A program made the translations under genes and the position numbers. The notes under the pieces were generated by a model that was not told the DNA's origin, made no database searches, and worked only from the letters and a program-made list of their open reading frames with translations. DNA of 64,000 nt, from IMG/VR virus record IMGVR_UViG_3300029305_004082, one strand, 5' to 3'. This DNA is from a virus. Taxonomy: Duplodnaviria; Heunggongvirae; Uroviricota; Caudoviricetes. This document shows positions 6,351 to 62,852 of this stretch, in pieces; positions within the stretch are counted from its first letter, which is position 1; every line of letters begins with the position of its first letter.

Positions 6351-7241
6351 ATGAAGAACAACAACACAATCAGTATCATCGAGTTTGCCGCCGCTATGCG
6401 TGCTATGCCCACTGTAAGCAAGGCTGTATCTATGGATACAGAGCGCAGGGAAAAGCGCATAGCAACCGAATTAGAGCGTGCCGCCGCACGTAACGCCGCC
6501 GAACGTGCCGCCGCACAGCCTCAAATTATTGCCGCCGCTGAACGTGAGTATACCAACGATAATACGTTAATCGGCCACGCCTCAAAGGTTGCATATTGCG
6601 CTGTTCGTACATGCCGCAATAAAGCAGGCGAGAATCCTGTATTGCGTCAGCTTACATATGGCTTTGCGTTTGACGCAAGAGAAAAGCGCAAGCTGTCTGT
6701 ATTGTACAATGCTGACAGCAACAAGCAAGGCACAGATATTCCCTTTGATGGTACATTATCCACCCTATCCGACAGTGCCGAATTAGTTAATATCGCCGCT
6801 CTTGCTATGATTGAAACGGACGGCGAACAGGCCACAGGCAAAGAGTATCAGCCCACCGAAAACGCTATTAAAGCCGCCTATAAAGCCGTATATCATGCCA
6901 TTTATGAAAGCCGTAATAAACGTGGTAGTATCAAGTCTGTATATGTTGATGACTTACAGCAAAATGATGACGGTGAAATAATAGATACTGACTATGTACG
7001 TGTTACCAAATACTACGATATCGACAATATCGTTGACTACCATTATACCATGGGCATTCTTGAAGGCGTTTCCGACAGGCTCACAACAAGACAGGCGGAA
7101 ATACTGCATTTACGCATGCAGGGGTTGAGCCATGATACCATAGCGGAACGGCTGAACATCCGCCGCCAAACGGTTGCGGAACATATGGAATGCATACAGC
7201 AAATAACAATGCGCTATATCGCAATGGTTAACCGTGATTAA
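6351..7241 (+). CDS. sigma-70 region-4 / HTH_LuxR-like transcription regulator with Ala-rich N-terminus
   Basis: C-terminus LTTRQAEILHLRMQGLSHDTIAERLNIRRQTVAEHMECIQQ resembles sigma-70 region 4; first plus-strand gene after the switch region. Confidence 0.55.
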   Translation: MKNNNTISIIEFAAAMRAMPTVSKAVSMDTERREKRIATELERAAARNAAERAAAQPQIIAAAEREYTNDNTLIGHASKVAYCAVRTCRNKAGENPVLRQLTYGFAFDAREKRKLSVLYNADSNKQGTDIPFDGTLSTLSDSAELVNIAALAMIETDGEQATGKEYQPTENAIKAAYKAVYHAIYESRNKRGSIKSVYVDDLQQNDDGEIIDTDYVRVTKYYDIDNIVDYHYTMGILEGVSDRLTTRQAEILHLRMQGLSHDTIAERLNIRRQTVAEHMECIQQITMRYIAMVNRD

Positions 7242-15544: not shown

Positions 15545-16360
15545 ATGTCTAACGCTGCAATTCTGGAAAACGCTCACAATATCGGTGGCAAGAAGTTCGC
15601 CACCATTCCCGTTTCTGAAATCAAGATTGACGCAGGGTATCAGCGCCGTCTGCGGGAGAAGGTAAACAGAATGGTTGCAAATTGGGATTACAACCTTTGC
15701 GACGTGGTTCTTGTAAGTTACCGCAACAATAAGTTCTATGTAATCGACGGTCAGCACAGGGTTGCGGCGGCAAAGCGTGTTGGTGCTGAATTCCTGCCTT
15801 GCCAGATTGTCGAAGGACTTTCCAGAGAAGATGAAGCCGCTCGTTTTGTGGCACTTAATTCCGCAACCAGTCCTCTCAGCCAGTATGACACATGGAAAGC
15901 AAATCTGTTGTGCGGCGACCCCGTAGATACTGAGGTAAAGCGTATTTGTGACAAGTGGGGAATTGAAGTTTCCGACCGCAGGGGCGGTGTTTACGGCAGG
16001 CTCGGTAATCTGAGGGAAGCACGCAAGATTGTGCGCGGTCAGGGCGGCGCGGCGTTTGATTGGATAATGGAAGCACTGTACACCGCACAGTGGCATATTG
16101 TGCGTGGCGGGTATTGCAGTGAAGTGCTGGCCGCCCTTTCAAATGTGTATAAGAAATTTGGTCCCGACACAATGGAATATGTGGTTTCCATTATCAAATC
16201 CAAGAATCCCAATACTCTGCGTGCTGTTGCTCAGGACAGATATACCGAATACGGCATACACAAGTCTCTGGTTAAGTACATGGAAGATGAAGTGCTGAAT
16301 GCAATTGCCCGTGCTTCGTCCACGACAACCGAAACCGAGAATATTTTCATGGCTGCGTAA
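15545..16360 (+). CDS. ParB-like nuclease (ParB N-terminal domain, DGQHR-type) protein
   Basis: VIDGQHRVAAAKRVGAEFLPCQIV matches the ParB/Srx-fold DGQHR motif; RBS AGGAGG. Confidence 0.6.
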   Translation: MSNAAILENAHNIGGKKFATIPVSEIKIDAGYQRRLREKVNRMVANWDYNLCDVVLVSYRNNKFYVIDGQHRVAAAKRVGAEFLPCQIVEGLSREDEAARFVALNSATSPLSQYDTWKANLLCGDPVDTEVKRICDKWGIEVSDRRGGVYGRLGNLREARKIVRGQGGAAFDWIMEALYTAQWHIVRGGYCSEVLAALSNVYKKFGPDTMEYVVSIIKSKNPNTLRAVAQDRYTEYGIHKSLVKYMEDEVLNAIARASSTTTETENIFMAA

Positions 16361-16376
16361 AGGAGGAAAACTAAAT

Positions 16377-17927
16377 ATGGATAAGGTTTGTAACTCTTGT
16401 GGTTGCGTAATCGAAACCGAGGCCGTCGAAATCGACGGTCTCTTTTATTGCCTCGAATGTATGGAAGATGAAAGCCTGTGGGGGGAATGCAAGGCCTGCG
16501 GCAAAAAGATATTCCTCGATAATGTCGAGTATCAAGCCGAAGACGGAGCCGTATTTTGCTCCGAGGAGTGTGTAGCGGACGCAGGCTATTTCATTTGCGC
16601 ATACTGCGAAGAAATTTACAATAAAGACGAGATTGAACCTATTGCCATTGACGAATTTACTTATTGCAGTGAAGAGTGTGCTCTCGATGATGGTTTCGAA
16701 AAATGCTCTGATTGTGGCAAATGGTGTAACTCATATGATGTGGAATTCGTAGAGAGTATTGATGCTTGTGTTTGCGATGAGTGTCTTCGTTATAGTGGCA
16801 ATTATTTCAAATGTGACCATTGCAACAAATGGTATAGAGAGAATGATTTGTGGCAAGTAGACGATAGGATTGCAATATGCGATAACTGCAGTGACCATTA
16901 TTATGTTTGTGCAGACTGTGACTGTATTGTGTATGAAGACGATGTATATTGGGTAGGCGATGATTATCCTCATTGTGAGTCTTGTTATTACGACAATCAT
17001 AACCGTGACGATGATGACGATGATGACGATGAAGGCGGCGACATCAACAGTTGGAATTACAGACCGAGTTTCCGTTTCTATCCCGATATGATTCCTGTTG
17101 CTGGACAGTTGTATATGGGTGTTGAACGTGAGGTTGACGGTGGCAATGGCCCTCGCGGACTTGCAAGTGAACTTGTTGATTACAGGGAAATCTATTGTAA
17201 GCATGACGGTAGTCTGAATTGCGGCGTTGAAATCATATCCCATCCTTGTACGCTGGATTATCACACCAACAAACTCCCTTGGGAAGAAATCGAAAATCTT
17301 GCTCTGGGACGCAATTTCAAGTCTCACGATACAAGCACCTGCGGTCTTCACGTCCATGTAAATAGGAGCTTCTTTGGAGACAATAGGGATGAACAGGATT
17401 TAAATATTGCAAAGGTAATCCTTATTGTGAATCGCTTCTGGGATTCTCACATCGTCCCCTTCACACGTCGCCAAACCGGCAACATTAACCAGTGGGCTAA
17501 GAAAAATGAAGTCGGCACGATTTATGATAGAGATGCGGTAGCGGTAAAGAGGAGGAAGACCATTGACGGGTCGAGTAGAATGGGACGATATGTTGCCGTA
17601 AACCTGCAGAATTACGAAACCATTGAATTCCGCATATTCCGCGGCACGCTGAAGCACTCCACATTTATTGCCACCCTGCAGTTTGTTGATACTCTCTGCC
17701 GTTTCGTTAAGAGTATCTCCATTGATGATGTGGACAACCTTACATGGGAAGACATCTTTGCCGGAACTGACTATCCCGAACTCAACGCTTATCTTGCGGA
17801 GCGTACGGATTTTAATCCTGCGTCAGTCAAAAAGGTATTTATCGAGCATAAACCCGCCACCATCAAGGAGAGGTTTGGTAATGAAAAAGAATTATCTTAT
17901 TACGAGCGAAATGATACGGTTCTTTAA
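16377..17927 (+). CDS. multi-FCS-zinc-finger protein fused to an Amidoligase_2-type domain
   Basis: Four to five repeats of CxxC-x(8-14)-[YF]C[SL]EEC (FCS/MYM-type zinc fingers); poly-Asp linker; C-terminal YMGVEREVDG...HDGSL.CGVEIISHP...CGLHVHV resembles the amidoligase (GS-like) family. Confidence 0.55.
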   Translation: MDKVCNSCGCVIETEAVEIDGLFYCLECMEDESLWGECKACGKKIFLDNVEYQAEDGAVFCSEECVADAGYFICAYCEEIYNKDEIEPIAIDEFTYCSEECALDDGFEKCSDCGKWCNSYDVEFVESIDACVCDECLRYSGNYFKCDHCNKWYRENDLWQVDDRIAICDNCSDHYYVCADCDCIVYEDDVYWVGDDYPHCESCYYDNHNRDDDDDDDDEGGDINSWNYRPSFRFYPDMIPVAGQLYMGVEREVDGGNGPRGLASELVDYREIYCKHDGSLNCGVEIISHPCTLDYHTNKLPWEEIENLALGRNFKSHDTSTCGLHVHVNRSFFGDNRDEQDLNIAKVILIVNRFWDSHIVPFTRRQTGNINQWAKKNEVGTIYDRDAVAVKRRKTIDGSSRMGRYVAVNLQNYETIEFRIFRGTLKHSTFIATLQFVDTLCRFVKSISIDDVDNLTWEDIFAGTDYPELNAYLAERTDFNPASVKKVFIEHKPATIKERFGNEKELSYYERNDTVL

Positions 17928-17988
17928 AAACCCATACGACGCTCTGGACAACATTTACCCCGAAGAGCTATACCCCTATAAAGGATAG
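17881..17988 (+). CDS. small ORF (35 aa) overlapping the amidoligase 3' end
   Basis: RBS AAGGAGAGG then ATG; ends at TAG 17986-17988; the +1 frame continues into the start-less N-terminus of the repeat protein. Confidence 0.3.
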   Translation: MKKNYLITSEMIRFFKNPYDALDNIYPEELYPYKG

Positions 17989-18037
17989 GCGCAATGTTGC
18001 TGTAGGAGACCGTGTTATAATTCGCAGCTGGGAAAAC

Positions 18038-18502
18038 ATGTGTAGTGAGTATGAATATGATTCAATAGCAATTATCACGGGGTGTTATCCTTTCGTTGAT
18101 GGCATGAAGCATCTTTGCGGCAGAACTGCAACCGTAATCCGTGTTACTGGCTCCGTATTGAGTCTTGACTTCGACGATAAGAGCGGAGATATAAGCTGGA
18201 ATTTCACGGCAGAAATGATTGATGTAATTGCTAAGAGGGATAGAAATGATGTACAGGTCGGTGACCGTGTAATATTCCGAAACTGGGATGACATGGCCGC
18301 AGAATTTGGTGTTCGTGATGACTTTATTACGAGTCCTATTGTTGTATCCCCAGCAATGATGGAGTTCTGCGGAAAGAAGGCAACAGTAACAGATATTGAC
18401 CGTGGTTATTCAAACACTTATATAAGCCTTGAATTTGACGACCAGAGTATTTCACAAAGCTTCTATTCCATAACCACTGATATGATTGCATTGCTTAGTT
18501 AA
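18038..18502 (+). CDS. tandem-repeat protein (2 x ~75-aa repeat); true 5' end probably upstream of the annotated ATG
   Basis: Repeat 2 begins VGDRVIFRNWDDM; an in-frame copy VGDRVIIRSWENM lies immediately upstream of the ATG with no canonical start codon. Confidence 0.45.
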   Translation: MCSEYEYDSIAIITGCYPFVDGMKHLCGRTATVIRVTGSVLSLDFDDKSGDISWNFTAEMIDVIAKRDRNDVQVGDRVIFRNWDDMAAEFGVRDDFITSPIVVSPAMMEFCGKKATVTDIDRGYSNTYISLEFDDQSISQSFYSITTDMIALLS

Positions 18503-18518
18503 GAGAGGAGAAATTGAT

Positions 18519-19643
18519 ATGTGTATTATTTGTGCAAAGAATAAGGGAATTGAAATGCCTTCTTGGGACATCATTGAAAATATGTGGTATAATAACACCG
18601 ACGGCGCAGGTCTGATGTGGGTAGAAGACGGCGCTGTTCGTATTTCCAAAGGATATATGAAGTATGAGGACTTTGAGGCCGAGCTGAATAGACTTGGTGA
18701 ACGCCTCGACCTTAAGGAAACCCCTGTTGTAATGCATTTTCGCATAACAACCCATGGCGGAACAAAGCCCGAAAACTGCCATCCGTTTCCTATTACCGAC
18801 CAGATTGGTCTTCTCCAGAAGCTGAGGTGTAATACCGACGTTGGTGTTGCTCACAACGGTATCCTGTCTTTCACCCCCAGAAAGGGGATTTCGGACACGA
18901 TGGAATATATCGCCACACAGCTCGCCATAATCAAGAAAATGAATCGCAAATTCCTCAAGCACGACTACCTGATGCAGCTTATCAAAAATGCTACAGAAGG
19001 AAGTCGTCTTTGTTTTCTGGATAAGTATGGCAAGATTTACACCACGGGCAATTTCATAGAAGACAACGGCATCCTATATAGTAACGGCAACTATAAGTCC
19101 ACGTATTTCTATAGTAGAAAGAAAAATTCCGACAGCACAGAAAAGCTGCTTTGCCACATCGACGACGTTGATATGTTCATAGAGGATAAGGACGGCAAGA
19201 AGGTAGATTCTTTTGCGGCTGATTTCTACGTGGACTACAGCAACAATGTATACTCCTACAGTTATGCAAAGGACGCATTCTATCGGATGTCCGATATGAC
19301 TGCTCGCAAATACCTTGGCAGTGAGGGATTCTGTTATAGTCAGGCGATAATTGCCGATGTGGTAAATGAAAAGGACAACGGCGATATACCCGATTACTGG
19401 TTTGATTACCTCTGCCCTTTTGATGGCGTGGTTCAGTACACCCCGGAAGAAGAGGAATGGGGTGGCAATTTTTACATTGACTCAAAGGGCAGGGTGTATG
19501 AGGAGCTTGAATACGGCATTGCGGTGCTTCTGGAAAATGCTAAGGCGTGTACCTACGATGGTCTTGCTCCTATTTATGCCGATAGAAACGCACTCGAGTT
19601 TACCTGCTGTACGGAGGAAGCATATTATGCTTGGAATAGTTAA
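18519..19643 (+). CDS. class-II (Ntn) glutamine amidotransferase-like protein
   Basis: Starts Met-Cys (MCIICAKNKG) with RBS AGAGAGGAG; HFRITTHG, CHPF, AHNGIL motifs typical of GATase_4/6 / YafJ-type. Confidence 0.6.
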   Translation: MCIICAKNKGIEMPSWDIIENMWYNNTDGAGLMWVEDGAVRISKGYMKYEDFEAELNRLGERLDLKETPVVMHFRITTHGGTKPENCHPFPITDQIGLLQKLRCNTDVGVAHNGILSFTPRKGISDTMEYIATQLAIIKKMNRKFLKHDYLMQLIKNATEGSRLCFLDKYGKIYTTGNFIEDNGILYSNGNYKSTYFYSRKKNSDSTEKLLCHIDDVDMFIEDKDGKKVDSFAADFYVDYSNNVYSYSYAKDAFYRMSDMTARKYLGSEGFCYSQAIIADVVNEKDNGDIPDYWFDYLCPFDGVVQYTPEEEEWGGNFYIDSKGRVYEELEYGIAVLLENAKACTYDGLAPIYADRNALEFTCCTEEAYYAWNS

Positions 19644-19854
19644 ACCATTCCTTTGGAAATTGCGCAAACGGTTTGCGCTGTATTATTACGAATATAAGGA
19701 GTTGTTTGTCCAGGAATACAGTAAGCCGCCCGATACAACAGGCGGCATGATTTTTAAATACGCAGACAGAGAGTTGTACGATACAGCTCTCTTTGTTTTT
19801 AACGTAAAAATGCGGCCTGTGTACGAAGTTAAGGGGATAAAGGTAAGGTTTTAG
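19627..19854 (+). CDS. hypothetical small protein
   Basis: 75 aa, overlaps the 3' end of the GATase gene. Confidence 0.3.
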   Translation: MLGIVKPFLWKLRKRFALYYYEYKELFVQEYSKPPDTTGGMIFKYADRELYDTALFVFNVKMRPVYEVKGIKVRF

Positions 19855-27882: not shown

Positions 27883-29001
27883 ATGTGCGAGTACGCATAT
27901 AAATTTCGCATATATCCTACAGATAAGCAGGAACAGCAAATACTTCGCACATTCGGCTGCTGTAGGTATGTCTACAACTATTTCCTCGCGCTGAGGAGAG
28001 ATACGTACGCTGTGGAAAGCAAAACCATAAACTACAATGAGTGTTCCCGACAGCTCACTCTCCTAAAGCCTGCATTGCCCTGGCTGGAGGAAGTAGACGC
28101 AACAGCGCTACAGTCCTCTTTGAGGGCATTGGATACGGCTTATCAGAACTTCTTCGCCAAGATTAAGAAAGGGGAAAAGCCTGGCTATCCTCAGTTCAAG
28201 AGTAAGCGCAGCCCCGACCAGAAATACAAGAGCAAAAACAACAGAGGCACTATCAGAATCGAGGACGGCAAGCTCCGTCTGCCCCTGCTCGGATTTGTCA
28301 AGTGTCGCATATCCAGAGAAGTAAAAGGGCGCATACTCTCAGCTACCGTATCTCGCAATCCCAGCGGTAAGTATTTCGTATCCCTGTGTTGTACTGATGT
28401 AGAAATAGAGCCCTTGCCCCATACTGGTGCTATGGTAGGCGTTGATATGGGAATAAGCTCATATGCTGTCACATCTGACGGGATAGAGTATCCCAATCAT
28501 AAATACTTCGCCCAGTCTGAGAAACAACTGGCGCGACTGCAAAGGCAGCTCTCCCGAAAGACAAAGGGGAGTAATCGGCGCAGTAAGGCCAAAGCAAAGG
28601 TGGCAAGGCTCCATGAACACATACACAACCAGAGGCAGGACATGTTGCACAAGCTGTCTACACAGTTGGTAAGGGAATACGATGTAATCTGCATTGAGGA
28701 CCTGGCACCCAGCGATATGGTTAAGAACCACAAGCTGGCCAAGGACATATCTGACGCAGCATGGGGTGAGTTCAGAAGAATGCTCACCTACAAGGCGGAC
28801 TGGTATGGCAAAGAAGTGGTCACGGTGGACAGGTTCTTCCCATCAAGCCAGCTGTGCTCATGTTGCGGAGCAAAGTGGTCAGGAACCAAAGACCTCTCCG
28901 TAAGAGAGTGGACCTGCCCTGATTGCGGAGCACGTCACAACAGAGACCACAATGCAGCACTAAACATTCTCAACGAAGGTCTGCGCATCTTAGCAACGTA
29001 G
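27883..29001 (+). CDS. tnpB: TnpB (OrfB) RNA-guided endonuclease, IS605 family
   Basis: N-terminal YKFRIYPT...Q...L...FG..RYVYN (OrfB N-terminal HTH), Ruv[21 protein letters not shown], Ruv[14 protein letters not shown]-terminal CxxC...CxxC zinc ribbon. Confidence 0.8.
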
Positions 29002-29145
29002 ACTTAACATCAACGGTAGGGTAGGACATACCCGAACCTTCAACGCTCGGGGACACCGTGTAAGACCTCGCTCAATGCAGGCTGTGGCGAGCGAACCGAG
29101 AATCCCCTGGATTTATCCATGGGGAGTGTCAAATCACTATAGTAT
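29002..29145 (+). ncRNA. putative omega-RNA (reRNA) / right-end region of the TnpB element
   Basis: About 140-nt GC-rich structured sequence immediately 3' of tnpB with terminal hairpin; no ORF. Confidence 0.4.
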
Positions 29146-29162
29146 ATAAGGAGGTAAACAAA

Positions 29163-29393
29163 ATGAACAAAATGAGAAGGTCTGACATAGACGACTTGAT
29201 TACTGCTCTGGAAAAATTAAGAGAGAAGACCGAGGATATTCTGAGTGCGGAGCAGGACTACTATGACAACATGCCCGAAAACCTCCAATCAAGCAGCCGT
29301 GCCGATGCCGCCGAAGAAGCTATTAGCAATTTAGAGGATGCAATATCATCAATAGAAGATGCGATAGGCAGTCTTGAGGAGGCAAAAGCATGA
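29163..29393 (+). CDS. hypothetical acidic coiled-coil small protein
   Basis: RBS AAGGAGGTAAAC; 76 aa. Confidence 0.45.
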   Translation: MNKMRRSDIDDLITALEKLREKTEDILSAEQDYYDNMPENLQSSSRADAAEEAISNLEDAISSIEDAIGSLEEAKA

Positions 29394-30070
29394 GGGGAAC
29401 AACAGCTCCCCTCCTTTCTGGAAAGGTAATACAATTTCCAAAAAGGAAGGTATATAGTAAATCAACCACGGGATATAAATCCACCGGCGGCAGAGTCCCC
29501 CATGCCGCAGACCCGATTCCGCCAGAAGCCCTAAGCCGCATTAAGGATTACTTTTCTGGAAAAGAATTTGGCTTGCGCAACTGGACTTTTTTAATTTTTG
29601 GTATCAATTCGGGCAACAGATGCGGCGATATCGGCAAGTTGCGCATCGGCGATGTGGTAGGATTTGACGGCCAGATTAAGACTGATGTAGAATACATGGC
29701 ACAGAAAACCCGAACGTGGGAACACCTTTATATCCGCGATGAATTAAAGCCAGACATTGCGGCGTACATCAAAACATTACCAGACCAGTCGAGAGGAGCG
29801 TGGTTATTTCCAACAAAGACAGGTTGCCCGATGAGTTCAAAGACGTACTGGAAAATACTTAAAAAAACCAGTGAGGATTTGAATCTGGACTTTCACCTCA
29901 GCACACACTCAATGCGCAAAACATTGGGTAAAGCGGCTTACGAAACATATGGGATGGACGGAGCGAGGGAAATGCTTCGCCACAAGAACAATCAGGTCAC
30001 AGCAAGATATATTGGAGTCACAGAAGAAGCAGTTCGAGAAAAGGCCCTAAAATTACCTACAATCAAATGA
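29390..30070 (+). CDS. short tyrosine site-specific recombinase (catalytic domain)
   Basis: Box motifs: GNRCGDIGKLRIGDV (Arg I), HSMRKT (H-x-x-R), LRHKNNQVTARYIG (H...Y); 226 aa. Confidence 0.65.
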   Translation: MRGTTAPLLSGKVIQFPKRKVYSKSTTGYKSTGGRVPHAADPIPPEALSRIKDYFSGKEFGLRNWTFLIFGINSGNRCGDIGKLRIGDVVGFDGQIKTDVEYMAQKTRTWEHLYIRDELKPDIAAYIKTLPDQSRGAWLFPTKTGCPMSSKTYWKILKKTSEDLNLDFHLSTHSMRKTLGKAAYETYGMDGAREMLRHKNNQVTARYIGVTEEAVREKALKLPTIK

Positions 30071-30194: not shown

Positions 30195-31523
30195 ATGCAG
30201 AACATATCTATTAATTCCCTCAAACCCCATGAAAAGAATGATTACTTCTTCGATGATATGACGGGTTCCAAATGGTATGAATTTATTGAATCAATTCGTA
30301 CAAGCGGTGTAATTGAACCCATCGTTGTAACACGGGACTTCACCATTGTTTCCGGCCATCAGCGGGTCAGGGCGTGCAAGGAACTGGGTATTGAAGAAAT
30401 ACCTGCAAGGGTTAAGGATTACGCCGATGAAGATGCCATTATAAAGGACCTTCTGGAAACCAATGTGCGGCAGCGGGGTAACATCGACGGCAGCGCACTT
30501 AAGCTTGGACGCATTATTGCAGAGTTGGAAAGGATATACGGGATTCAGCATGGTAACAACCAGAGGACTTCCCATAATGGGAACTCCTCGGAACCTAAAT
30601 CACAGGACGAGTTGTTTGCTATGCTTGGTATAAGTTCAAGCTCTTACCATAGAGCTAAAAACCTTATTGAACTTATTCCTGAACTGCAGGATTCTCTTGA
30701 AGAAGGTTTTATTTCGGCTACCGCCGCTTCCAACCTTCTTGCCCGTCTTTCCAAAGAAGAACAGATTGCTGTATTTGCCGCCATGCCCAAGGATGTTAAA
30801 CTGTCTCAGCGTGAAGTAAAGGAATACATTGACGAAATTCGTGAGGAAGACGCAGAGGACTTTGAAGATATGCAGAAGCGTATTAAGCAGGCGAATTCCG
30901 AATTGGAAAAAGCTAAGGCAGAAATCCAGAATGCGAAACTTGAAGTTGCGCAGGTACGCCGCGAAATGGAGCGAGCTGACCGTGATGTTGCGGGAGAAGT
31001 TATGAATAAGCTGAATCTCTCCGAACTACAGCTTCGTGATGAATATGAGAAGCACGAGAAGACAAAAGTTCAGCTTCGTAACATAGCGTCCGAAAACTTC
31101 GAATTAAAAGACCAGAAGAGGAAAGCCGAAGCCCTGCTTGAATCCGCCCGTAAGAGGCTCGATGAACTTAAGAGTGTGGAAGAGTCCGGTCTGAGCATTG
31201 AAAACCAGAAGAAGATGGAAGAGCTCTTCAATCAGATTTCTCTTCTGGAAAAGAAATGCATGGAACTTGAGCGTGAAAATGAAGAACTCGCTGAAGCACA
31301 GCGTGCATATTGCTGTGATGTCGAGGAGCTTCTTAGATTTACCGAGAATGCTTGTAACGTAATTGATGCGTACTCCCGTGATGGCAGTACGATTGACCTT
31401 GTGGCGGCCAATCCCGAAGTAAAGCGCAAGGTAGAAACCCGAGTAAATACCCTGATTGATAGCGCAAAACGAATCATTAATTCTCTCTACGGTACTGAGT
31501 TCGCAGACATCGCCGTGGTTTGA
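30195..31523 (+). CDS. ParB-like nuclease-domain protein with long C-terminal coiled coil
   Basis: N-terminus PHEKNDYFF...EPIVVTRDFTIVSGHQRVRACKELGIEEIPARV (ParB N-terminal domain); C-terminal about 200 aa E/K-rich heptads. Confidence 0.55.
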   Translation: MQNISINSLKPHEKNDYFFDDMTGSKWYEFIESIRTSGVIEPIVVTRDFTIVSGHQRVRACKELGIEEIPARVKDYADEDAIIKDLLETNVRQRGNIDGSALKLGRIIAELERIYGIQHGNNQRTSHNGNSSEPKSQDELFAMLGISSSSYHRAKNLIELIPELQDSLEEGFISATAASNLLARLSKEEQIAVFAAMPKDVKLSQREVKEYIDEIREEDAEDFEDMQKRIKQANSELEKAKAEIQNAKLEVAQVRREMERADRDVAGEVMNKLNLSELQLRDEYEKHEKTKVQLRNIASENFELKDQKRKAEALLESARKRLDELKSVEESGLSIENQKKMEELFNQISLLEKKCMELERENEELAEAQRAYCCDVEELLRFTENACNVIDAYSRDGSTIDLVAANPEVKRKVETRVNTLIDSAKRIINSLYGTEFADIAVV

Positions 31524-40105: not shown

Positions 40106-41272
40106 ATGAATTATGTAACTTATCATCTGCATAGCGACAGAAGCCTTTTGGATAGCTGTACGCATTATAAGGATTATATAGATAAGGCGGTTGAATTGGG
40201 ACAACCTGCTATTTGCTTTACTGAGCACGGAAGGGTCTTGAACTGGGTAGCAAAGAAATTGTATTGCGCTGAAAAGGGTATAAAGTATATCCATGGTGTT
40301 GAAATATACCTTACAGAAACATTGGAAGAAAAAGTGAGGGATAATTACCATACCATCCTGATTGCTAAAAACTATGAGGGTGTTAAGGAAATTAACTCTC
40401 TGCTGACTCTATCGGAGCAACCCGACCATTTTTACTATAAAAATAGAATTACCTTCGATGAATTCTTAAATATAAGCGATAACATAATAAGTACATCTGC
40501 CTGTTTGGCAGGACCACTTAATAAACTTCATATTAGTCATCCTTACTATGAAAGGTTAGCTGAAAAATATACCTACTATGAAATTCAGCCACACAACCAT
40601 CCTGAACAAATAGCGTATAATCAGCTTCTTAAAATGCTTGCAAGAAAATACCGCAAGTCGCTTATTGCAGGAACTGATACCCACAGTCTTAATGATTATA
40701 AAGCAGAGTGCCGGAGCATTTTGCAGAAAGCAAAGCATATTGCTTATGCCGACGAAGATAGTTTCGACCTAACTTATAAATCATACGACGAACTTGTTGA
40801 TGCGTTTAGGCGTCAGAATTGTTTTGAAGAAAATGTTTATATAGAAGCTATTGGAAACACAGTAGTAATGGCTGAAAGTGTAGAGGACTTTGAATTAGAT
40901 ACAACCTTCAAATACCCTATGCTTTATGGTTCTTATGAAAAGGACGCCGAGGTATATGAGAAAAGGGTTGCAGAAAAGTTTGCTGAAAAGGTTGAGGCAG
41001 GAGTTATTCCCCAAGACCAGATAATAAATTTCCAGAAAGCGATAGACGAAGAGAGCGCCGTATTTGAGCAAATAAACATGAAGGGCTTTATGCTTTCAAT
41101 GAGCGAGTTTGTTTGTTGGTGCAAGGAAAATGGTATTCCTATCGGGTATAACCGTGGTTCTTGCGGCGGCAGCCGAATTGCTTACATTCTGGATATAACG
41201 GACATGAATCCAGAAACTTGGCATACTGTTTTTTCTCGGTTTGCTAATAGCTCACGAAAAGAAATTGGGGAT
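40106..41272 (+). CDS. dnaE: DNA polymerase III alpha subunit (DnaE-type), exon 1 (PHP domain)
   Basis: HLHSDRSLLD...FTEHG (PHP); ends ...FSRFANSSRKEIGD, aligning with E. coli DnaE FERFLNPERVSMPD. Confidence 0.75.
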
Positions 41273-42452
41273 TAAAACTAACGTTTATCTAACAACTATG
41301 AGTAATCAAGAATACAAAATGACGATTTCAAAGTCAGAAATCATAAGAATACATCAAGAAGAATATATGAATGGGATAAGCACTACTAAACTCGGTAAAA
41401 AATACGAAGTAAGTAGCGCATATTTTTCGAGGTGGTTTAAGAAACTTGGGCTACCTGTAAGAAATAACTCGGATAAATCAAGGAAGTATGTTTTCAACGA
41501 AAACGTATTTGAAAAAATAGATACCGAGGAAAAGGCTTACTGGCTTGGTTTCCTATACGCCGATGGCTATATTATGTCTCGTAGAAAGAACGGTAATCCC
41601 AAGGTGGGGATTACGTTGAGCGTGAACGATATAGGTCATCTCGAAAAATTTAGAAAGTTTGTAAGTGGCGACATGCCTATTAAGATTTATAAGCCGTCAA
41701 AAAGTGGTTATGAAGGTTCTGGTGATTATTGCCGAATTTTAATAACAAGCGAAAAAATGGCGTCCGACCTTATAAGGCATGGTGTGTTAGAGCATAAAAC
41801 AAATGTGCTTAAACCACCTAAACTGCCGCCAACATTTATAAAACATTTTATACGTGGTTATTATGATGGGGACGGAAGTATCTGGTGTCAGTCGAATAAG
41901 AGCGGTAAAGACACTCAATATTCCGTGGGATTTGTTGGCACAAAAGACATGCTTGAATTTATACAGCAGGAGTTAATGAGCCGAAGAATTTTGACCCGTG
42001 AATATCCCATGAGCCGCCGCAGGCCAGATAGTGATGTGTTGCAGTGGAAGTTTGGCGGAAATAATATTGTTATTGATTATTTGATGTATTTGTATTCTGA
42101 TGCCTCAGTTTATTTAGAAAGGAAGCTTAGAAAAGCAGACGGTTTAAAAACGTTAGCATATAGTCGTTTATAGTGGAAACATTATAAATTATTAGGCGGT
42201 GAATTGCTGGAAACTCCTTAGAGCCGCACAAACCACAGCATAGCGGGAAACTGCAGGTGCGACGGTTAGAAAATTGTGCGGATTGGACAATCAGCAGCCG
42301 AGCTTCGTACAGAAGAAGGTTCAACGACTATCCGGCCACGGAGTAGGGGAGACCCGAAGTACCGCCCACCCTAACGTAAAGGCGAGGGTGAAGATATAGT
42401 CTATGCCCAACCTGCAGGTTGTTAAAGTACCGCGAAAGCGGGGGTACAACAG
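41273..42452 (+). mobile_element. group I self-splicing intron in dnaE
   Basis: Starts right after exon-1 terminal U with a TAA stop; ends in G before the exon-2 codon ATA; splicing gives ...RKEIGD|IDIDASPDDRDK..., collinear with DnaE PDFDVDF; 3' part contains GC-rich structured core (…TCAACGACTATCCGGCC…). Confidence 0.7.
41298..42173 (+). CDS. LAGLIDADG homing endonuclease encoded in the intron
   Basis: Two LAGLIDADG motifs: YWLGFLYADGYI and FIRGYYDGDGSI. Confidence 0.75.
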   Translation: MSNQEYKMTISKSEIIRIHQEEYMNGISTTKLGKKYEVSSAYFSRWFKKLGLPVRNNSDKSRKYVFNENVFEKIDTEEKAYWLGFLYADGYIMSRRKNGNPKVGITLSVNDIGHLEKFRKFVSGDMPIKIYKPSKSGYEGSGDYCRILITSEKMASDLIRHGVLEHKTNVLKPPKLPPTFIKHFIRGYYDGDGSIWCQSNKSGKDTQYSVGFVGTKDMLEFIQQELMSRRILTREYPMSRRRPDSDVLQWKFGGNNIVIDYLMYLYSDASVYLERKLRKADGLKTLAYSRL

Positions 42453-44408
42453 ATAGACATAGATGCGAGTCCTGATGATAGAGACAAGATTTATAAATAT
42501 ATAATTGACCGATTTGGTCAAGATAGAGCCGCTTACATACTGGCTATCGGAACCATTTCCGATAAAGGAACTATTGATGAAATCGGCAGAGCGTTAGCTG
42601 AACGTTGGAAAGACGAGCATGAGGGTACGTCCAACGAAATAAATCCATATTCATTAAAAGTTATAAAAGAAGTTAAGGCTTTGTATGAAACGGACGAAGA
42701 GGCGGCTCGTAAAAAGTATCCTGACATATTTTATTATTTTGACGGCATGGTTAATACGGCAATATCACAATCAATGCATCCCGCAGGAATCGTGGTTAGC
42801 CCTATTTCACTGCCTGATAATTATGGTTATTTAACCAAAGAAGATAAGTCAATCCTTCAGATTGATATGGAAGAGATTCACGAAATCAGTCTGGTTAAGT
42901 ACGACATTCTGGGATTGAAAAACGTACAGATTATCCGCGATTGTTGCAAATTGGCAGGAATACCTTATCCTAAATCGCACGAAATCAATTGGTGTGACGA
43001 GGCAGTTTGGACGGACATGCTACGTTCTCCTGTTGGTATTTTCCAGTTTGAAAGTGCTTTTGCTTTCCAGTCGCTATGTAAAATGAAACCTAAAAGCATA
43101 GAAGATATGTCTCTTGTAACGGCGGCAATAAGGCCGTCCGGTACATCATATCGAGACTCACTCTTGCGTAGGGAAATAAATAAAAATCCTTCAAAGATTA
43201 TTGACGACATGTTAGAGAAGAACCTTGGGTTCTTGGTGTATCAGGAAGATACTATTAAGTTTCTCCAAGAAGTGTGCGGACTTACTGGTAGTGAAGCTGA
43301 TAATATCCGCCGAGCCATCGGCAGAAAAGATAAGGAGAGGCTTGATAAAGCCTTGCCGCAAATTCTTGAAGGATATTGTTCCAAGTCAAGCAGCCCCAGA
43401 GAAGTAGCCGAGACAGAGGCAAAGGCGTTCTTGAAAATAATTGAGGATAGCGCTTCATATCAGTTTGGTTATAACCATTCGATTGGATACTGTCTTATTG
43501 GTTACACTTGTGCCTATCTTAGACATTATTATCCATACGAATTTATCACTGCGTTTCTCAACAATGCAGATAACGACGAAGATATAGCAAATGGAGCTTC
43601 GTTGTGTAGAGAGTACGGGATTAGGTTAACATCTCCCAGATTTGGTGTGTCCAGAGATAATTATACTTTTGATAAGAACGGCAAAATTATTGCGATGGGA
43701 GTCTCGGCAATTAAGTTCCTTAGCAAAAAGATTGCGAATCAGCTATACAAAACCTATCAGAACAATCGACTGGATACTTTTGTAGATGTTTTATATGCAA
43801 TTACAGAACAAACGGAGATTGATACGAGACAGCGTGACATTCTGATACACACAGACTATTTCGCAGAATTTGGCGAAATGGGGAAGCTTATTGAGGTTGC
43901 CAAGGCTTTTGATTATTTCAAGAGCGGGAAAGCAAAAAAGGTAAGCAAGGAAAAAGAATGCCCGTATATAAAATTTGTTGCCGCATACGGGAGCGACAAA
44001 AACGCAAAAGGCGCTGAGCTTAAGGCGTTTACAATTGCCGACTGCAAAGGGTTGCTTAAAGCTATAGAGCAGGATATTGCTGAGAGCGACAAGAATGTTA
44101 TTACATATGCCGACCGTGTAGCATGGCAAATGGAATATCTTAATTCTATACAGGGTTCTGGAAAACCCGAAGATAGATGGAAGATATATATTAAAGAACT
44201 TCGTCCTGCGTGTCGCAAGGCCGATGGCAGACAGTTCGGATACAACATAAACTACATTTCACTTGGTAGCGGTAAGTCCGGCACTGCAACGATATTTAAT
44301 AAAAATTTCAAGGAAGGAACAAAGGTTGGCTCCGTACTGCAGACTTCTCAGAGCGGGTGGTCTCGCAACGGTAAGTATTTCAACCTCGACAGATATAGTT
44401 TGATATGA
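42453..44408 (+). CDS. dnaE: DNA polymerase III alpha subunit (DnaE-type), exon 2
   Basis: Frame opens at 42426; IDIDASPDDRDKIYKYIIDRFGQDRAAYILAIGT... HPAGIVVSP ... matches the DnaE polymerase core. Confidence 0.7.
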   Translation: MDIDASPDDRDKIYKYIIDRFGQDRAAYILAIGTISDKGTIDEIGRALAERWKDEHEGTSNEINPYSLKVIKEVKALYETDEEAARKKYPDIFYYFDGMVNTAISQSMHPAGIVVSPISLPDNYGYLTKEDKSILQIDMEEIHEISLVKYDILGLKNVQIIRDCCKLAGIPYPKSHEINWCDEAVWTDMLRSPVGIFQFESAFAFQSLCKMKPKSIEDMSLVTAAIRPSGTSYRDSLLRREINKNPSKIIDDMLEKNLGFLVYQEDTIKFLQEVCGLTGSEADNIRRAIGRKDKERLDKALPQILEGYCSKSSSPREVAETEAKAFLKIIEDSASYQFGYNHSIGYCLIGYTCAYLRHYYPYEFITAFLNNADNDEDIANGASLCREYGIRLTSPRFGVSRDNYTFDKNGKIIAMGVSAIKFLSKKIANQLYKTYQNNRLDTFVDVLYAITEQTEIDTRQRDILIHTDYFAEFGEMGKLIEVAKAFDYFKSGKAKKVSKEKECPYIKFVAAYGSDKNAKGAELKAFTIADCKGLLKAIEQDIAESDKNVITYADRVAWQMEYLNSIQGSGKPEDRWKIYIKELRPACRKADGRQFGYNINYISLGSGKSGTATIFNKNFKEGTKVGSVLQTSQSGWSRNGKYFNLDRYSLI

Positions 44409-50018: not shown

Positions 50019-50092
50019 TGCCCCATGGTGTAATGGAAGCACATCTGCCTTTGAAGCAGAAGGCCACCGGTCGGTACGGTGTGGGGCAGCCA
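50019..50092 (+). tRNA. tRNA-Gln (anticodon UUG); unusual T-loop
   Basis: Acceptor TGCCCCA/TGGGGCA, D-arm GTGTaatggaaGCAC, anticodon arm TCTGC-cTTTGaa-GCAGA, T-stem CACCG/CGGTG with loop GTCGGTA, G73 then CCA encoded. Confidence 0.6.
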
Positions 50093-50113
50093 TTTATTTT
50101 TTTGGAGGAAATT

Positions 50114-50320
50114 ATGACGAATTTAGAATGGATAAAAGGATTGTCCGTAGAAGAAATGGCAGAATTTTTAACTTACTACAGATGGATTTGTTCTGATTGT
50201 CCTGAAGATAAATTGGTATATTGTAGTTGGGAATGTGAAAAACATCGCCGCGAATGGCTGATGAAAGAGCATGAGATGCGTATAGGTTCAGAATTTGAAA
50301 AGGAATGGCTGCAGGAATGA
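50114..50320 (+). CDS. hypothetical protein
   Basis: Start MTNLEWIKG with RBS GGAGGAAATT (the longer ORF would overlap the tRNA). Confidence 0.4.
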   Translation: MTNLEWIKGLSVEEMAEFLTYYRWICSDCPEDKLVYCSWECEKHRREWLMKEHEMRIGSEFEKEWLQE

Positions 50321-50619
50321 TTACAGATATGGAAACTTTTATGATGGATGAAAGTGACCGCATATGGGGCTTTCATGTTTACCGCCGCATGTTCACACCG
50401 TATGAACAAGATGCGAAGTTTATAGATGAAAGCTACTACGAGAATGGAACAATTATAAGCTACGGCAAAATTGTTGAAGCCATTGACCTTGGCGGCGGCG
50501 AATGGTTGCTCGGTATAAGAGAGTGTTGGGATGAAGGTAAAGAAGAATTAGAATATTCCGACTTTATAACGTATTACATGCTGAGTGAATTAAGGTTGAT
50601 GGCCAAGGTGGAAGAGTAG
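50305..50619 (+). CDS. hypothetical protein (alternative start 50317)
   Basis: 104-aa ORF. Confidence 0.4.
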   Translation: MAAGMITDMETFMMDESDRIWGFHVYRRMFTPYEQDAKFIDESYYENGTIISYGKIVEAIDLGGGEWLLGIRECWDEGKEELEYSDFITYYMLSELRLMAKVEE

Positions 50620-50627
50620 TACAGTGG

Positions 50628-50710
50628 GCGGATGTGGTGGAACGGCATACACAGCAGACTTAAAATCTGCCGGCGAAAGCTTGCGGGTTCAAATCCCGCC
50701 ATCCGCACCA
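50628..50710 (+). tRNA. tRNA-Leu (anticodon UAA)
   Basis: Acceptor GCGGATG/CATCCGC, anticodon arm GCAGA-cTTAAaa-TCTGC, long variable arm, T-arm CGGGTTCAAATCCCG, A73 + CCA. Confidence 0.75.
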
Positions 50711-50713
50711 AAC

Positions 50714-50788
50714 GCTGGTGTAGCTCAATGGCAGAGCAACTGATTTGTAATCAGTAGGTTGTAGGTTCGACTCCTATCACCAGCTCCA
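50714..50788 (+). tRNA. tRNA-Thr (anticodon UGU)
   Basis: Acceptor GCTGGTG/CACCAGC, D-arm TAGCTCAATGGCAGAGCA, anticodon arm ACTGA-tTTGTaa-TCAGT, T-arm TAGGTTCGACTCCTA, CCA encoded. Confidence 0.75.
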
Positions 50789-59254: not shown

Positions 59255-59394
59255 TGTTTGAAAAAAGCTTTGCGGAAACATTATTAGAATTGTTGTGTGA
59301 TGATTATGTTTTAACAGAAGAAGAAACAGGTCTTGCTATAGCAAACATCCAGGTGTATTATGATAGCATAGAACACAAAAGGAGAGAAACATGA
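59255..59394 (+). CDS. small protein (46 aa)
   Basis: RBS TTGGAGGAAAATG; overlaps the integrase start. Confidence 0.3.
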
Positions 59395-60968
59395 GAGCCT
59401 GTTTTTACGCAAGAGTTTCCACAGAAGAAGAAAAGCAAGCTGACGCTCTGGTAATACAATGCCAAGAGTTGCGGGACTTTATTGCGGAAATGGGATGGGA
59501 ATTGGTGCGGGAGTATGTTGATGAAGGTAAGTCCGGCACAACAATAAAGAAAAGAGATGAATATCGAAACCTGTACAATGACCTCGGGGAAGATATCTTT
59601 GACGTGGTTGTAATTAAGTCGCAGGATAGGTTGATGCGTAGTGCAAAAGACTGGTATACTTTCCTCAGCCGCATGGTTGAAAATGGGAAGAAATTATACT
59701 TTTTTATTGACCGCAAATTCTATCAGTCTGATGATAGCTTGATTACGGGCATTAAGGCGATACTCGCAGAAGATTATAGCCGAGAACTTTCCAAAAAGAT
59801 AAATAATGCAACTCGCACAAGACAAAAGAATGGGTCGAGTATTATAACGAATGGCTCTATGTGGGGGTTCGAGCAGAAAGACGGAGAGCTTATTGTTGTG
59901 CCCAAGGAAGCTGAATTAATACGGCGCATATTTAAAATGTATGCCGACGGTATGGGCGCACGCAGAATAAAGGCTACTCTTGATGAAGAAGGTGTTGTTT
60001 CCAGAAGAGGAACCAAAATTGGCCTTACTACATTAAAGAGGATGATAAGCAATCCTATTTATTATGGCACCGTAGTTCAAAATAAACTCCACTTTGATTT
60101 TGACACAAAGAAGATTAATCGTGTTGACGAAAAGGAGTGGGTATGGCACGAGAATAGGGTTGAACCTATCGTATCAAAAGAATTGTGGGATAAGGCGAAC
60201 GAACAAAGAGTTCGAAACACAACCAGTGACGGAACTGCGCGGCGTGGTATTAAGAGAGGTTCTTATCCACTGTCCAGTAAAATAGTGTGCGGCGATTGCG
60301 GCGCAAAATATCATCACGTATACCGCATTTTTGCCAGAGGAGAGAATTTGCCCTGTTGGATTTGCGGCACCTACCAGAATTATGGAAGGAAGCACCCGCA
60401 AGGAAAACCTGAGCGGACAATGGGTTGCGACAATCCGTTGGTGCGGCAAGATTACCTTGATGAAATATTCGCTAAAATTGCGGAGAATTACGAGGAAGAC
60501 TTCGTGCGTGGCCTGCAGGTTGCTATGAAGGCTATTGCGGCTGCAATTAGTTCCGGCGCGGCAGAAAAAGAGATTGCGGAATTGCGGCAAAGGTTACAGG
60601 AAGTGGAACATAAGAAAGAGCTTTTGCTGGATAATCTGTTAGATGGTACAATAAGTAAAGAAATGTACGCCAGAAGAAATGCTAAGTTTGAAGATGATTG
60701 TGCGGCATTGGAAGAAAAGATTGCCAGACTGGAAGAAACCAATAGGAAGAGAGGAAGCATAGAGAATAGACTTAATAAGATAAAAGAAGAAATAGAAAAT
60801 ACCTATGATAAAAAAGCTCGTGTTGCAACTATAATGAACCACGTTGAGTGCGTTACAGTTTACAGCGACAAGGTGACTATTAAGCTTGATATGTTAAAGG
60901 ATGTTGTGGAAGTTGTTGACGGCAATGTTCCCGCAGAAGAACGCTATAAAATTGTATCGGTAAATTAA
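59391..60968 (+). CDS. large serine recombinase (integrase)
   Basis: N-terminus CFYARVSTEEE (catalytic Ser), resolvase domain, recombinase domain, zinc ribbon (CGDCGAKYHH...CWICG), C-terminal coiled coil; 525 aa. Confidence 0.8.
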   Translation: MRACFYARVSTEEEKQADALVIQCQELRDFIAEMGWELVREYVDEGKSGTTIKKRDEYRNLYNDLGEDIFDVVVIKSQDRLMRSAKDWYTFLSRMVENGKKLYFFIDRKFYQSDDSLITGIKAILAEDYSRELSKKINNATRTRQKNGSSIITNGSMWGFEQKDGELIVVPKEAELIRRIFKMYADGMGARRIKATLDEEGVVSRRGTKIGLTTLKRMISNPIYYGTVVQNKLHFDFDTKKINRVDEKEWVWHENRVEPIVSKELWDKANEQRVRNTTSDGTARRGIKRGSYPLSSKIVCGDCGAKYHHVYRIFARGENLPCWICGTYQNYGRKHPQGKPERTMGCDNPLVRQDYLDEIFAKIAENYEEDFVRGLQVAMKAIAAAISSGAAEKEIAELRQRLQEVEHKKELLLDNLLDGTISKEMYARRNAKFEDDCAALEEKIARLEETNRKRGSIENRLNKIKEEIENTYDKKARVATIMNHVECVTVYSDKVTIKLDMLKDVVEVVDGNVPAEERYKIVSVN

Positions 60969-62252: not shown

Positions 62253-62852
62253 TTACTCTGCCTTATTAAATATTGCAGATACGTCGGCAGGGTCATAAAC
62301 AAGTGTGTTAGTTGCATTAGCATAGCAAACATAAATATTGCCATCTTTTGCACTACGCACTTTCATGCCTATTGTAACCGCCATATTTCTTATATAGGGA
62401 TAAACACCTTCGGAATCAGGAGTGGGCCTTATTCCGTACAGTGCTTCTACGCCCAGTGCATCAGGGGGATATACAGAACTGGACGTAAGTTTCTGTTTTG
62501 CAAAATAAGCATTGCCCTTGTATATAAACATATCGTACTGTTCATAATCAGTGTTCTCGTGCCACTCATCGTAAGTAAACACCCCTGCGTTTGCCGAAGG
62601 TTCAGTGCCAGATGATTTTGCTGATGTTTGCACAATTTCCGCTCCTGCGGCGTTCAAAAGGTTTATTCTATTTGCCCCATCGAACCAATAAATATCAACA
62701 TTTCCAATGGGCTCAACAATATCATTTCCAATAACAACACCTTCTGCCTCGGTTTGTTCAACGGGGATATATATATCATTTCTATTCTTTTTTACAAGAA
62801 TGAGTTCATCACACAAGATGAACCTCTCGCCATCCTTTATTATTTCATACAT
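62253..62852 (-). CDS. hypothetical protein downstream of the DGR RT
   Basis: RBS AAGGAG 8 nt upstream; 199 aa; overlaps the RT stop by 13 nt (co-transcribed). Confidence 0.5.
   Translation of the reverse strand: MYEIIKDGERFILCDELILVKKNRNDIYIPVEQTEAEGVVIGNDIVEPIGNVDIYWFDGANRINLLNAAGAEIVQTSAKSSGTEPSANAGVFTYDEWHENTDYEQYDMFIYKGNAYFAKQKLTSSSVYPPDALGVEALYGIRPTPDSEGVYPYIRNMAVTIGMKVRSAKDGNIYVCYANATNTLVYDPADVSAIFNKAE

Follow-up and report, generated by a model that had tools for sequence, protein, structure and literature searches.

What is modified, and by what chemistry, when a phage encodes an ATP-using carboxylate-amine ligase together with a glutaminase? The question is raised by positions 15545 to 19854 of a 64,000-nucleotide (nt) stretch of DNA from a virus of the Caudoviricetes (IMG/VR record IMGVR_UViG_3300029305_004082; the whole stretch is hereafter called the window). 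Five open reading frames (ORFs) on the + strand, part of a long series of genes that a large phage carries on one strand, encode in order a ParB-like protein, an amidoligase with zinc modules, a small repeat protein, a class II glutamine amidotransferase-like protein (here, the glutaminase), and a 75-amino-acid (aa) protein. An initial annotation, made from the DNA alone, had placed these ORFs correctly, and proteins identical to theirs recur on a contig of ~110 kb. The ligase and the glutaminase prove to be a conserved pair carried by several kinds of mobile elements, and they may constitute a two-subunit, glutamine-dependent amidotransferase. The module has already been described in silico and is annotated in many phage genomes; what we add to it is a split allele of the ligase and a set of domain assignments.

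The amidoligase ORF (516 aa; 16377 to 17927, + strand) is a truncated, split allele whose ATG lies 9 nt downstream of an AGGAGG Shine-Dalgarno sequence. Its predicted ATP-dependent carboxylate-amine ligase domain (17097 to 17866, + strand, boundaries approximate) matches Pfam Amidoligase_2 (PF12224) over aa 270 to 438 with 36.8 bits against a gathering threshold of 22 (E = 5e-9), and the ORF also matches phrog_16683 (E = 4e-73); more than 4,500 ligase homologues scored at E ≤ 1e-5 in a single search. The motifs GVExEVD, KHDGS, EIxSHP, SHD, CGxHxH, RR, GRY, and IEFRxFRG, all present in the window protein, are invariant in 17 to 39 homologues, across which about 40 polar or charged residues do not vary. 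The metal- and ATP-binding site of the fold typically consists of such residues, and the role of each one here is putative. As a structural model we used P0001, a fused homologue 92% identical to the window ligase, predicted with AlphaFold (predicted local distance difference test [pLDDT] score, 87). The ligase domain has the catalytic fold of glutamine synthetase and glutamate-cysteine ligase, and the nearest solved folds are YbdK, glutamate-cysteine ligase, glutamine synthetase, and GmaS, at 8 to 15% identity. A profile search of the PDB with the ligase domain alone gave no meaningful match, leaving it with no sequence-detectable relative of solved structure. The initial annotation had recognized an amidoligase in this C-terminal region from its motifs, and this call holds: the motifs are there, the Pfam match lies above threshold, and the fold is of the glutamine synthetase type rather than an unrelated one.

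The glutaminase (374 aa; 18519 to 19643, + strand) begins with MCIIC, contains the motifs HFRITTHG, AHNGIL, and ISDTMEY, and has a Shine-Dalgarno sequence, GAGGAG, 8 nt upstream of its start at 18519. Its catalytic domain spans aa 1 to ~200 (18519 to 19118) and is followed by a beta-rich C-terminal module (aa ~205 to 374), which found no family match and occurs twice in the window lineage and once in most relatives. An in-frame Met-Cys stands at or close to the annotated start in nearly all of the 75 homologues detected, among which C2, R75, N113-G114, and D126 are invariant. We take these to be, as in PurF and GlmS, the nucleophile, the residue binding the glutamine carboxylate, the oxyanion hole, and the residue binding the amino group, respectively; the PurF equivalents (R73, N101-G102, and D127) were assigned from motif position, not superposition. 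Their invariance implies free glutamine or a gamma-glutamyl compound as the substrate. In a Foldseek search with a model of the protein (pLDDT, 89), the top 15 matches were the GlmS glutaminase domain and PurF (probability, 0.9 to 1.0), followed by other N-terminal nucleophile (Ntn) hydrolases. Among sequence profiles, a GlmS-type NCBIfam model matched weakly (E = 7e-5), homologues at 44 to 51% identity carry PF13230, and glutaminases of a sister subfamily pass GATase_6, GATase_7, and GATase_4. The assignment to class II Ntn amidotransferases made in the initial annotation is thus supported by the Met-Cys start, the invariant catalytic residues, and the predicted GlmS/PurF fold.

That these two proteins belong together is indicated by a survey of 165 loci with a related ligase, collected from IMG/VR and from GTDB, the latter sampled at one genome per species. 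A class II glutaminase was detected in 139 of them; in 127 of the 139 it lies directly downstream on the same strand, bearing out the proposed coupling of the two genes, and in 109 loci it overlaps the ligase gene or starts within 30 nt of it. About half of the 26 loci in which no glutaminase was detected stop at a contig edge just past the ligase. In the window the two genes are separated solely by an ORF that is part of the ligase in other alleles (see below). The glutaminase slot is filled by the GATase_4-like "MCIIA" type of the window in 42 loci and by a GATase_6-like "MCALFG" type in 94; the use of two subfamilies in one slot suggests that the shared property is glutaminase chemistry. 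No third gene is conserved in the subfamily of the window.

The pair is very common on mobile elements; it occurs in gut and rumen phages, in Pseudomonas, mycobacterial, and marine phages, and on elements of Clostridia. In genomes of Ruminococcus, Oscillospiraceae, Christensenellaceae, and other Clostridia it sits between a DUF960 gene and a serine recombinase, with DUF1643, DUF4314, tyrosine integrases, or MobA-type relaxases nearby; the ccr complex of the staphylococcal cassette chromosome (SCC) consists of DUF960, DUF1643, and the ccr serine recombinases. Not only phages, therefore, but several kinds of mobile elements, SCC-like integrative elements of Clostridia among them, carry the pair as cargo. 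In the GATase_6-type subfamily (e.g., L151 4269-7439, L148 2897-8904, and ~60 other genome loci), the ligase is preceded by DUF960, at a distance of 3 to 66 nt, and followed by a serine recombinase. The DUF960 proteins next to the ligase share a conserved C terminus (...HSTMLLAEEY), and the position of this acidic -EEY tail beside a ligase is suggestive, though the adjacency may simply be SCC-like backbone architecture. Paralogous ligase or glutaminase copies can occur within one element (L068 3703-4917 and 6792-7838; L083 2667-3968); the ligase/glutaminase paralogues P0010 and P0025 share one 61-kb contig, and the chromosome of Ruminococcus callidus ATCC 27760 has three paralogous copies (L151, L153, L168).

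If the pair acts on a large substrate, its selection would fall to the accessory domains of the ligase. The window ligase opens with six regularly spaced C-x2-C...C-x2/3-C modules (aa 5-28, 38-65, 74-101, 110-136, 146-171, and 178-203; 16389 to 16985, + strand, positions from a regular expression), followed by a poly-Asp (D8) linker (aa 211 to 218; 17007 to 17030, + strand) that is predicted to be disordered and whose equivalent in the P0001 model (residues 211 to 219) has a pLDDT below 50. The module cysteines are nearly invariant among homologues, so the pattern is not due to chance; zinc fingers are present in 153 of 177 ligases, and their number differs between close relatives. Foldseek with the finger array of the model retrieved the LIM domains of LMO2, PINCH1, FHL2, and LMO4 with probabilities of 0.97 to 0.99 but E values of only 1e-3; a profile search of the PDB with the fingers gave weak matches to LIM proteins (E, 0.01 to 0.1), and some homologues bear a precomputed LIM (PF00412) or double-zinc-ribbon annotation. 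The six modules thus look to be arranged like about three LIM domains, and we describe them as LIM-like by predicted fold. The initial annotation had read them as four or five FCS/MYM-type fingers, together with a poly-Asp linker. The zinc modules and the linker are indeed there, but the modules number six, and we rejected the FCS/MYM identity: a Pfam scan of aa 1 to 240 at E ≤ 10 returned no zf-FCS, YHS, or TRASH, only metallothionein (0.059) and C2H2 (0.77), and the fold matches are to LIM domains. The motif C-x2-C-x18-[FY]-C-S-E-E-C (FCSEEC) is real yet confined to modules 2 and 3, and it is insufficient for placing the array in the FCS family. Of the two families expected from Pfam in 16377 to 17927, then, Amidoligase_2 was found and zf-FCS was absent. 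Within the coding sequence of module 1 (EAVEIDGLFYC), positions 16419 to 16442 form a 10-bp GC-rich hairpin followed by TTTTATT, which is terminator-like in appearance yet lies 40 nt into the ligase gene.

The small tandem-repeat protein that had been listed as a separate component downstream of the ligase (154 aa; 18038 to 18502, + strand) does contain repeats, two mutually alignable units of ~85 aa, but it is not an independent component; it represents the C-terminal end of the amidoligase itself, a tandem SH3-like domain that has become detached. In the closest homologues (P0001, P0002, P0004, and P0122 to P0126; 671 to 681 aa) the ligase domain runs directly into the same repeat sequence. 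Window positions 16359 to 17866 align to 464 to 1966 of the homologous locus L004, and 17959 to 18568 align to 1967 to 2576, at 95 to 97% identity; the window therefore has a precise 92-nt insertion at 17867 to 17958. An insertion of 92 nt, a length not divisible by three, shifts the frame of the ligase, which meets a stop at 17925 to 17927, and the last 20 residues of the ligase (KERFGNEKELSYYERNDTVL) and its stop codon derive from the insertion. The insertion also accounts for the 110-nt gap between the ligase and the repeat ORF. The claim that all of the genes are tightly coupled fails at this gap; it stands for the 16 nt between the ParB-like gene and the ligase, for the 16 nt between the repeat ORF and the glutaminase, and for the overlap of the glutaminase gene with the 75-aa ORF. 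Seven contigs, one from each of seven JGI and ENA samples, share the split region at 100% identity, so the split allele is not an assembly error.

In Foldseek searches, the repeats (coding sequence of both units, 17960 to 18502, + strand) matched tandem SH3-like barrels, namely, 5ohq, the KOW pairs of Spt5/DSIF, the tandem Tudor domains of UHRF1 and 53BP1, and the Mind bomb repeats. The window sequence itself has weak Pfam matches, and its relatives P0276 and P0278 match SH3_15 (PF18346) above threshold. A word-indexed homology search with the domain recovered almost nothing, and only an exhaustive search displayed the promiscuity of the unit, which it found in 525 representative proteins. Close relatives of the window ligase bear two, one, or no SH3-like copies, indicating that a ligase without the domain is a normal state.

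Whether the detached domain is made from the split allele was considered from the sequence around the insertion. In the repeat frame, the first ATG, GTG, or TTG is the ATG at 18038, which lies inside repeat unit 1 and is without a good Shine-Dalgarno sequence. The insertion supplies the start codon and a strong Shine-Dalgarno sequence (AAGGAGAGG) of another ORF of 35 aa (MKKNYLITSEMIRFFKNPYDALDNIYPEELYPYKG; 17881 to 17988, + strand), which is called as a gene in L090. Read by eye, the zero frame has no slippery heptamer before the TAA at 17925, and a +1 shift at CTT-TAA would reach the 35-aa frame only; we therefore rejected recoding across the insert as lacking a plausible signal. The AAG codons at 17865 and 17963 are conceivable take-off and landing sites for a 98-nt hop, but the take-off codon is not followed by a stop codon; we regard the match as a coincidence for this reason and ribosomal hopping as highly improbable. 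The ratio of nonsynonymous to synonymous substitution rates (dN/dS) between the window and L004 is 1.74 for the detached domain and 0.50 for the ligase domain; with only 19 differences, the implied decay of the SH3-like domain is not significant (Fisher P = 0.11; binomial P = 0.40), and intact alleles vary at the same positions. We also rejected the insert as a repeated or mobile element: it has no second copy within the window, no exact or peptide-level match in IMG/VR and JGI contigs, and neither a target-site duplication nor terminal inverted repeats that could be seen by eye.

The chemistry to be expected is clear from the families: the ligase should join an ATP-activated carboxylate to an amine, and the Ntn enzyme should cleave the amide bond in glutamine or in a gamma-glutamyl compound. 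The likeliest mechanism, to which we give about even odds, is that the two proteins form a heteromer, a glutamine-dependent amidotransferase whose substrate would be a carboxylate on a macromolecule. In such an enzyme the glutaminase would hydrolyze glutamine and hand over ammonia; the ligase, with ATP, would convert the substrate carboxylate to an acyl-phosphate and capture the ammonia, turning -COOH into -CONH2; and the variable zinc-finger and SH3-like adaptors would pick out the substrate, most probably a host-cell protein. Action would be timed early in infection or on entry of the element. The pair is located in the early region of the window, amid small acidic ORFs and upstream of the replication genes. 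We prefer this reading because it is the most economical for a strictly paired two-gene unit. Beyond its catalytic domain, the glutaminase has only an extension of 100 to 170 aa with no match to a known synthase or acceptor domain, which suggests that the acceptor-side chemistry is supplied in trans. The variable adaptors argue for a macromolecular and probably a protein target; we hold the protein part of the proposal with less confidence than the amidotransferase reading as a whole. The folds, the conserved catalytic residues, the strict pairing, and the occurrence on mobile elements were shown; that the proteins form a complex, that ammonia passes between them, and what the target is are inferred. 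A narrower form of the proposal, in which the adaptors guide amidation of Glu or Asp side chains or of the C-terminal carboxylate of a host defense, transcription, or translation factor, is unlikely as a specific claim. Were it true, amidation would neutralize charge and so inactivate or redirect the host protein, a posttranslational modification not yet known in phage-host conflict.

Several observations weigh against an amidotransferase. The GATase_4 match anticipated for 18519 to 19643 did appear, yet at 20.4 bits (E = 2.7e-4) it falls below the gathering threshold of 23. No ligase-glutaminase fusion, which would have spoken for a complex, occurs in the 165 loci. GATase_4 relatives include EgtC, a gamma-glutamyl amidohydrolase that works with the GCS2-type ligase EgtA, and conservation of the same Ntn residues would be expected if the enzyme cleaved a gamma-glutamyl adduct. 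In LUZ24-like phages the pair stands alongside a second COOH-NH2 ligase and an ATP-grasp enzyme, an arrangement more in keeping with the stepwise assembly of a peptide than with plain amidation. Neither a LIM-like nor an SH3-like fold tells what the target is, and the detached SH3-like domain may not be made from the window allele.

Part of this evidence points to a different arrangement, in which the two enzymes act sequentially on a small molecule or a cell wall precursor and yield a novel metabolite or an envelope that blocks superinfection. The ligase would attach an amino acid to an amine, for example as a gamma-glutamyl group, or amidate the peptidoglycan stem peptide; the Ntn enzyme would then trim the gamma-glutamyl handle, as in EgtA/EgtC, or supply ammonia, as GatD does for MurT. 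We regard this main rival as possible but doubtful. The nearest solved folds of the ligase are small-molecule ligases, the GATase_4 family includes gamma-glutamyl hydrolases, some prophages pair amidoligases with a gamma-glutamyl cyclotransferase, and the additional ligase and ATP-grasp genes of LUZ24-like phages are better accommodated. Bacterial copies of the pair adjoin the recombinase of an integrative element, a typical site of host-benefiting cargo. A cell wall and superinfection exclusion proposal, reportedly made by Iyer et al. in 2009, as quoted in later papers, has been repeated in the literature. Set against these points, only two genes are conserved, and a ligase and a hydrolase of the same bond would form a futile cycle without further enzymes; by direct reading, neither protein has a recognizable signal or membrane segment; and two to six zinc modules plus SH3-like adaptors are unusual for enzymes with small substrates. 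The pair has also been listed in some genome papers among auxiliary metabolic genes, and a boost to host nitrogen or glutamine metabolism has been suggested for some marine and deep-sea phages. This seems to us very improbable, given that the ligase shares with glutamine synthetase the fold only, at 8 to 15% identity, and is no orthologue of it; that it bears targeting domains; and that a glutaminase and a synthetase together achieve nothing for nitrogen assimilation.

The initial annotation had pointed to a nucleic acid- or protein-targeted ligation on the basis of the FCS fingers and of the upstream ORF, named there a ParB-like nuclease. With a nucleic acid as the target, the DGQHR protein and the fingers would recruit the ligase, and a carboxylate on a base or tRNA would be amidated or an amino acid attached there. 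The upstream gene (15545 to 16360, + strand) encodes a 271-aa ParB/Srx-fold protein that matches DUF6551 at 49.3 bits against a threshold of 26.8 (E = 6e-13), has DGQHR at aa 68, falls into phrog_1033 (ParB-like), and has weak matches to DGQHR, SbnI, and SerK models. "Nuclease" is an unsafe label for it, as phage DUF6551 proteins of the ParB fold are reported to bind CTP or ATP (2025 preprint). DUF6551 adjoins the ligase in only 3 of 175 related loci (L006, L007, and L091), all from the phage lineage of the window, and we rejected it as a conserved partner of the module; with this, a nucleic acid target loses its main support, and we judge it improbable. There are considerations in its favor: DGQHR/ParB-fold proteins participate in DNA modification systems such as Dnd and Dpd, and Gat-QueC-type glutamine-dependent amidation yields modified phage DNA bases; KOW-like barrels frequently contact nucleic acids; and the window has a tRNA-Gln gene. 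The fingers, however, found no zf-FCS profile and resemble LIM domains, which mediate protein-protein contacts; none of the ~40 larger window ORFs scanned is a base hypermodification enzyme, the nucleotide- and base-related enzymes among them being methyltransferases, NrdD/G, dUTPase, and a nucleotide kinase only; and integrative elements, which are replicated along with the host DNA, carry the pair as well. Less probable again is a Pup-like tagging system, in which the ligase would join the C-terminal or a side-chain carboxylate of a small protein or peptide to a target lysine in the manner of PafA and the Ntn enzyme would prepare the tag, by deamidation or trimming, in the manner of Dop. The DUF960 proteins ending in ...LLAEEY immediately upstream of the ligase in ~60 loci of the sister subfamily prompted this idea, and we downgraded them as candidate tags since DUF960 is a component of the SCC ccr complex and its adjacency may mirror only the element backbone. 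The window, moreover, has no DUF960, its subfamily has no third conserved gene, and its glutaminase keeps the Arg and Asp with which the free alpha-carboxylate and alpha-amino groups of glutamine are held, a feature that does not suit a protein C terminus as the substrate.

Comparison with described systems places the putative amidotransferase within a known neighborhood. Iyer, Abhiman, Burroughs and Aravind (Mol Biosyst, 2009) are reported to have predicted a phage neighborhood of a COOH-NH2 ligase/Amidoligase_2 with a class II GATase. It is known from phiEco32, the LUZ24/PaP3/tf-like phages, mycobacteriophage Marvin (gp105-gp106), and OM43 phages, and the window shares with it the two Pfam families, their order, the tight linkage, and the early or accessory position. 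The lineage of the window differs from it in the six zinc modules, the D8 linker, and the ancestral tandem SH3-like C-terminal domain of the ligase and in a GATase_4-like "MCIIA" glutaminase with a duplicated C-terminal beta module, and it is without the extra COOH-NH2_lig and ATP-grasp genes of the LUZ24-like phages. Compared with YbdK and other GCS2 proteins, glutamate-cysteine ligases, and glutamine synthetases, the ligase adds zinc-finger and SH3-like domains. The proposed logic of a separate glutaminase, encoded by an adjacent gene, that feeds an ATP-using carboxylate activator resembles by analogy only that of MurT/GatD (acting on lipid II), GatCAB (Glu-tRNA-Gln), and Gat-QueC, whose folds differ from those of the window pair: MurT is Mur ligase-like, GatD is a class I glutaminase, and GatB and QueC are unrelated to glutamine synthetase. 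EgtA/EgtC of ergothioneine synthesis likewise combine a GCS2-type ligase with a GATase_4-type Ntn amidohydrolase, but these act at different points of a five-gene pathway, in which a gamma-glutamyl group is put on and taken off again later, whereas the window module has no EgtB- or EgtD-like gene. The partner of PafA is a second glutamine synthetase-like enzyme, Dop, whereas that of the window ligase is an Ntn glutaminase, and Pup-like tag and proteasome genes are absent from the window module.

The statement in the initial annotation that no such module has been characterized experimentally agrees with the searchable literature, in which we found no work of this kind; seventeen years after the prediction, the modified target is still unreported. 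The window copy adds no new principle and is of value as a well-defined example. Its lineage is a reasonable entry point for finding the substrate, as it offers natural variants with zero, one, or two SH3-like units, a split allele, and high-confidence models of both proteins. The window copy also serves as a caution: neither the adjacent ParB-like gene nor the "repeat protein" should be counted as a component of the system in its own right.

The 75-aa ORF (19627 to 19854, + strand) overlaps the end of the glutaminase gene by 17 nt and is called as a gene in L089 and L090; it has no Pfam, PHROG, or PADLOC match and no conservation tying it to the module. In sister phages an extra gene for a 131-aa protein, with no family match, lies between the ParB-like gene and the amidoligase (L004 65-460; L006 9586-9981) and is cleanly absent from the window. 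A second, larger ParB-like protein (442 aa; 30195 to 31523; phrog_12047, phrog_4715) is positionally unrelated to the amidoligase. A nucleotide search of the region against GenBank phages gave no match. PADLOC defense system models matched neither the ligase nor the glutaminase and other proteins only marginally; the initial annotation had raised host takeover or antidefense as a possible role. The window also codes for NrdD, NrdG, a DnaB-like helicase, primase, a split DNA polymerase, DNA methyltransferases, a serine recombinase, and three tRNAs, namely, tRNA-Gln(UUG), tRNA-Leu(UAA), and tRNA-Thr(UGU), clustered at 50019 to 50788. The DNA polymerase (phrog_405) is in two pieces (40106 to 41275 and 42681 to 44408) with a LAGLIDADG-type ORF (41241 to 42173) between them, which probably reflects invasion of the intron or intein type. 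Within 27883 to 30070, a local GC peak (0.48 against ~0.43) contains a transposase (phrog_506, E = 5e-141), which is followed by a short tyrosine recombinase-like ORF (29390 to 30070), the ensemble resembling an insertion sequence-like element within the phage. At the start of the long + strand block, a 296-aa protein (6351 to 7241) has a C-terminal helix-turn-helix of the LuxR/GerE and sigma-70 region 4 types and is possibly a phage transcription factor. Near 62 kb both the coding strand and the GC skew switch; a large serine recombinase (59391 to 60968) precedes this point, and a reverse transcriptase (phrog_1423; 62840 to 63964) follows on the opposite (−) strand, so the phage may be temperate and carry a diversity-generating retroelement.

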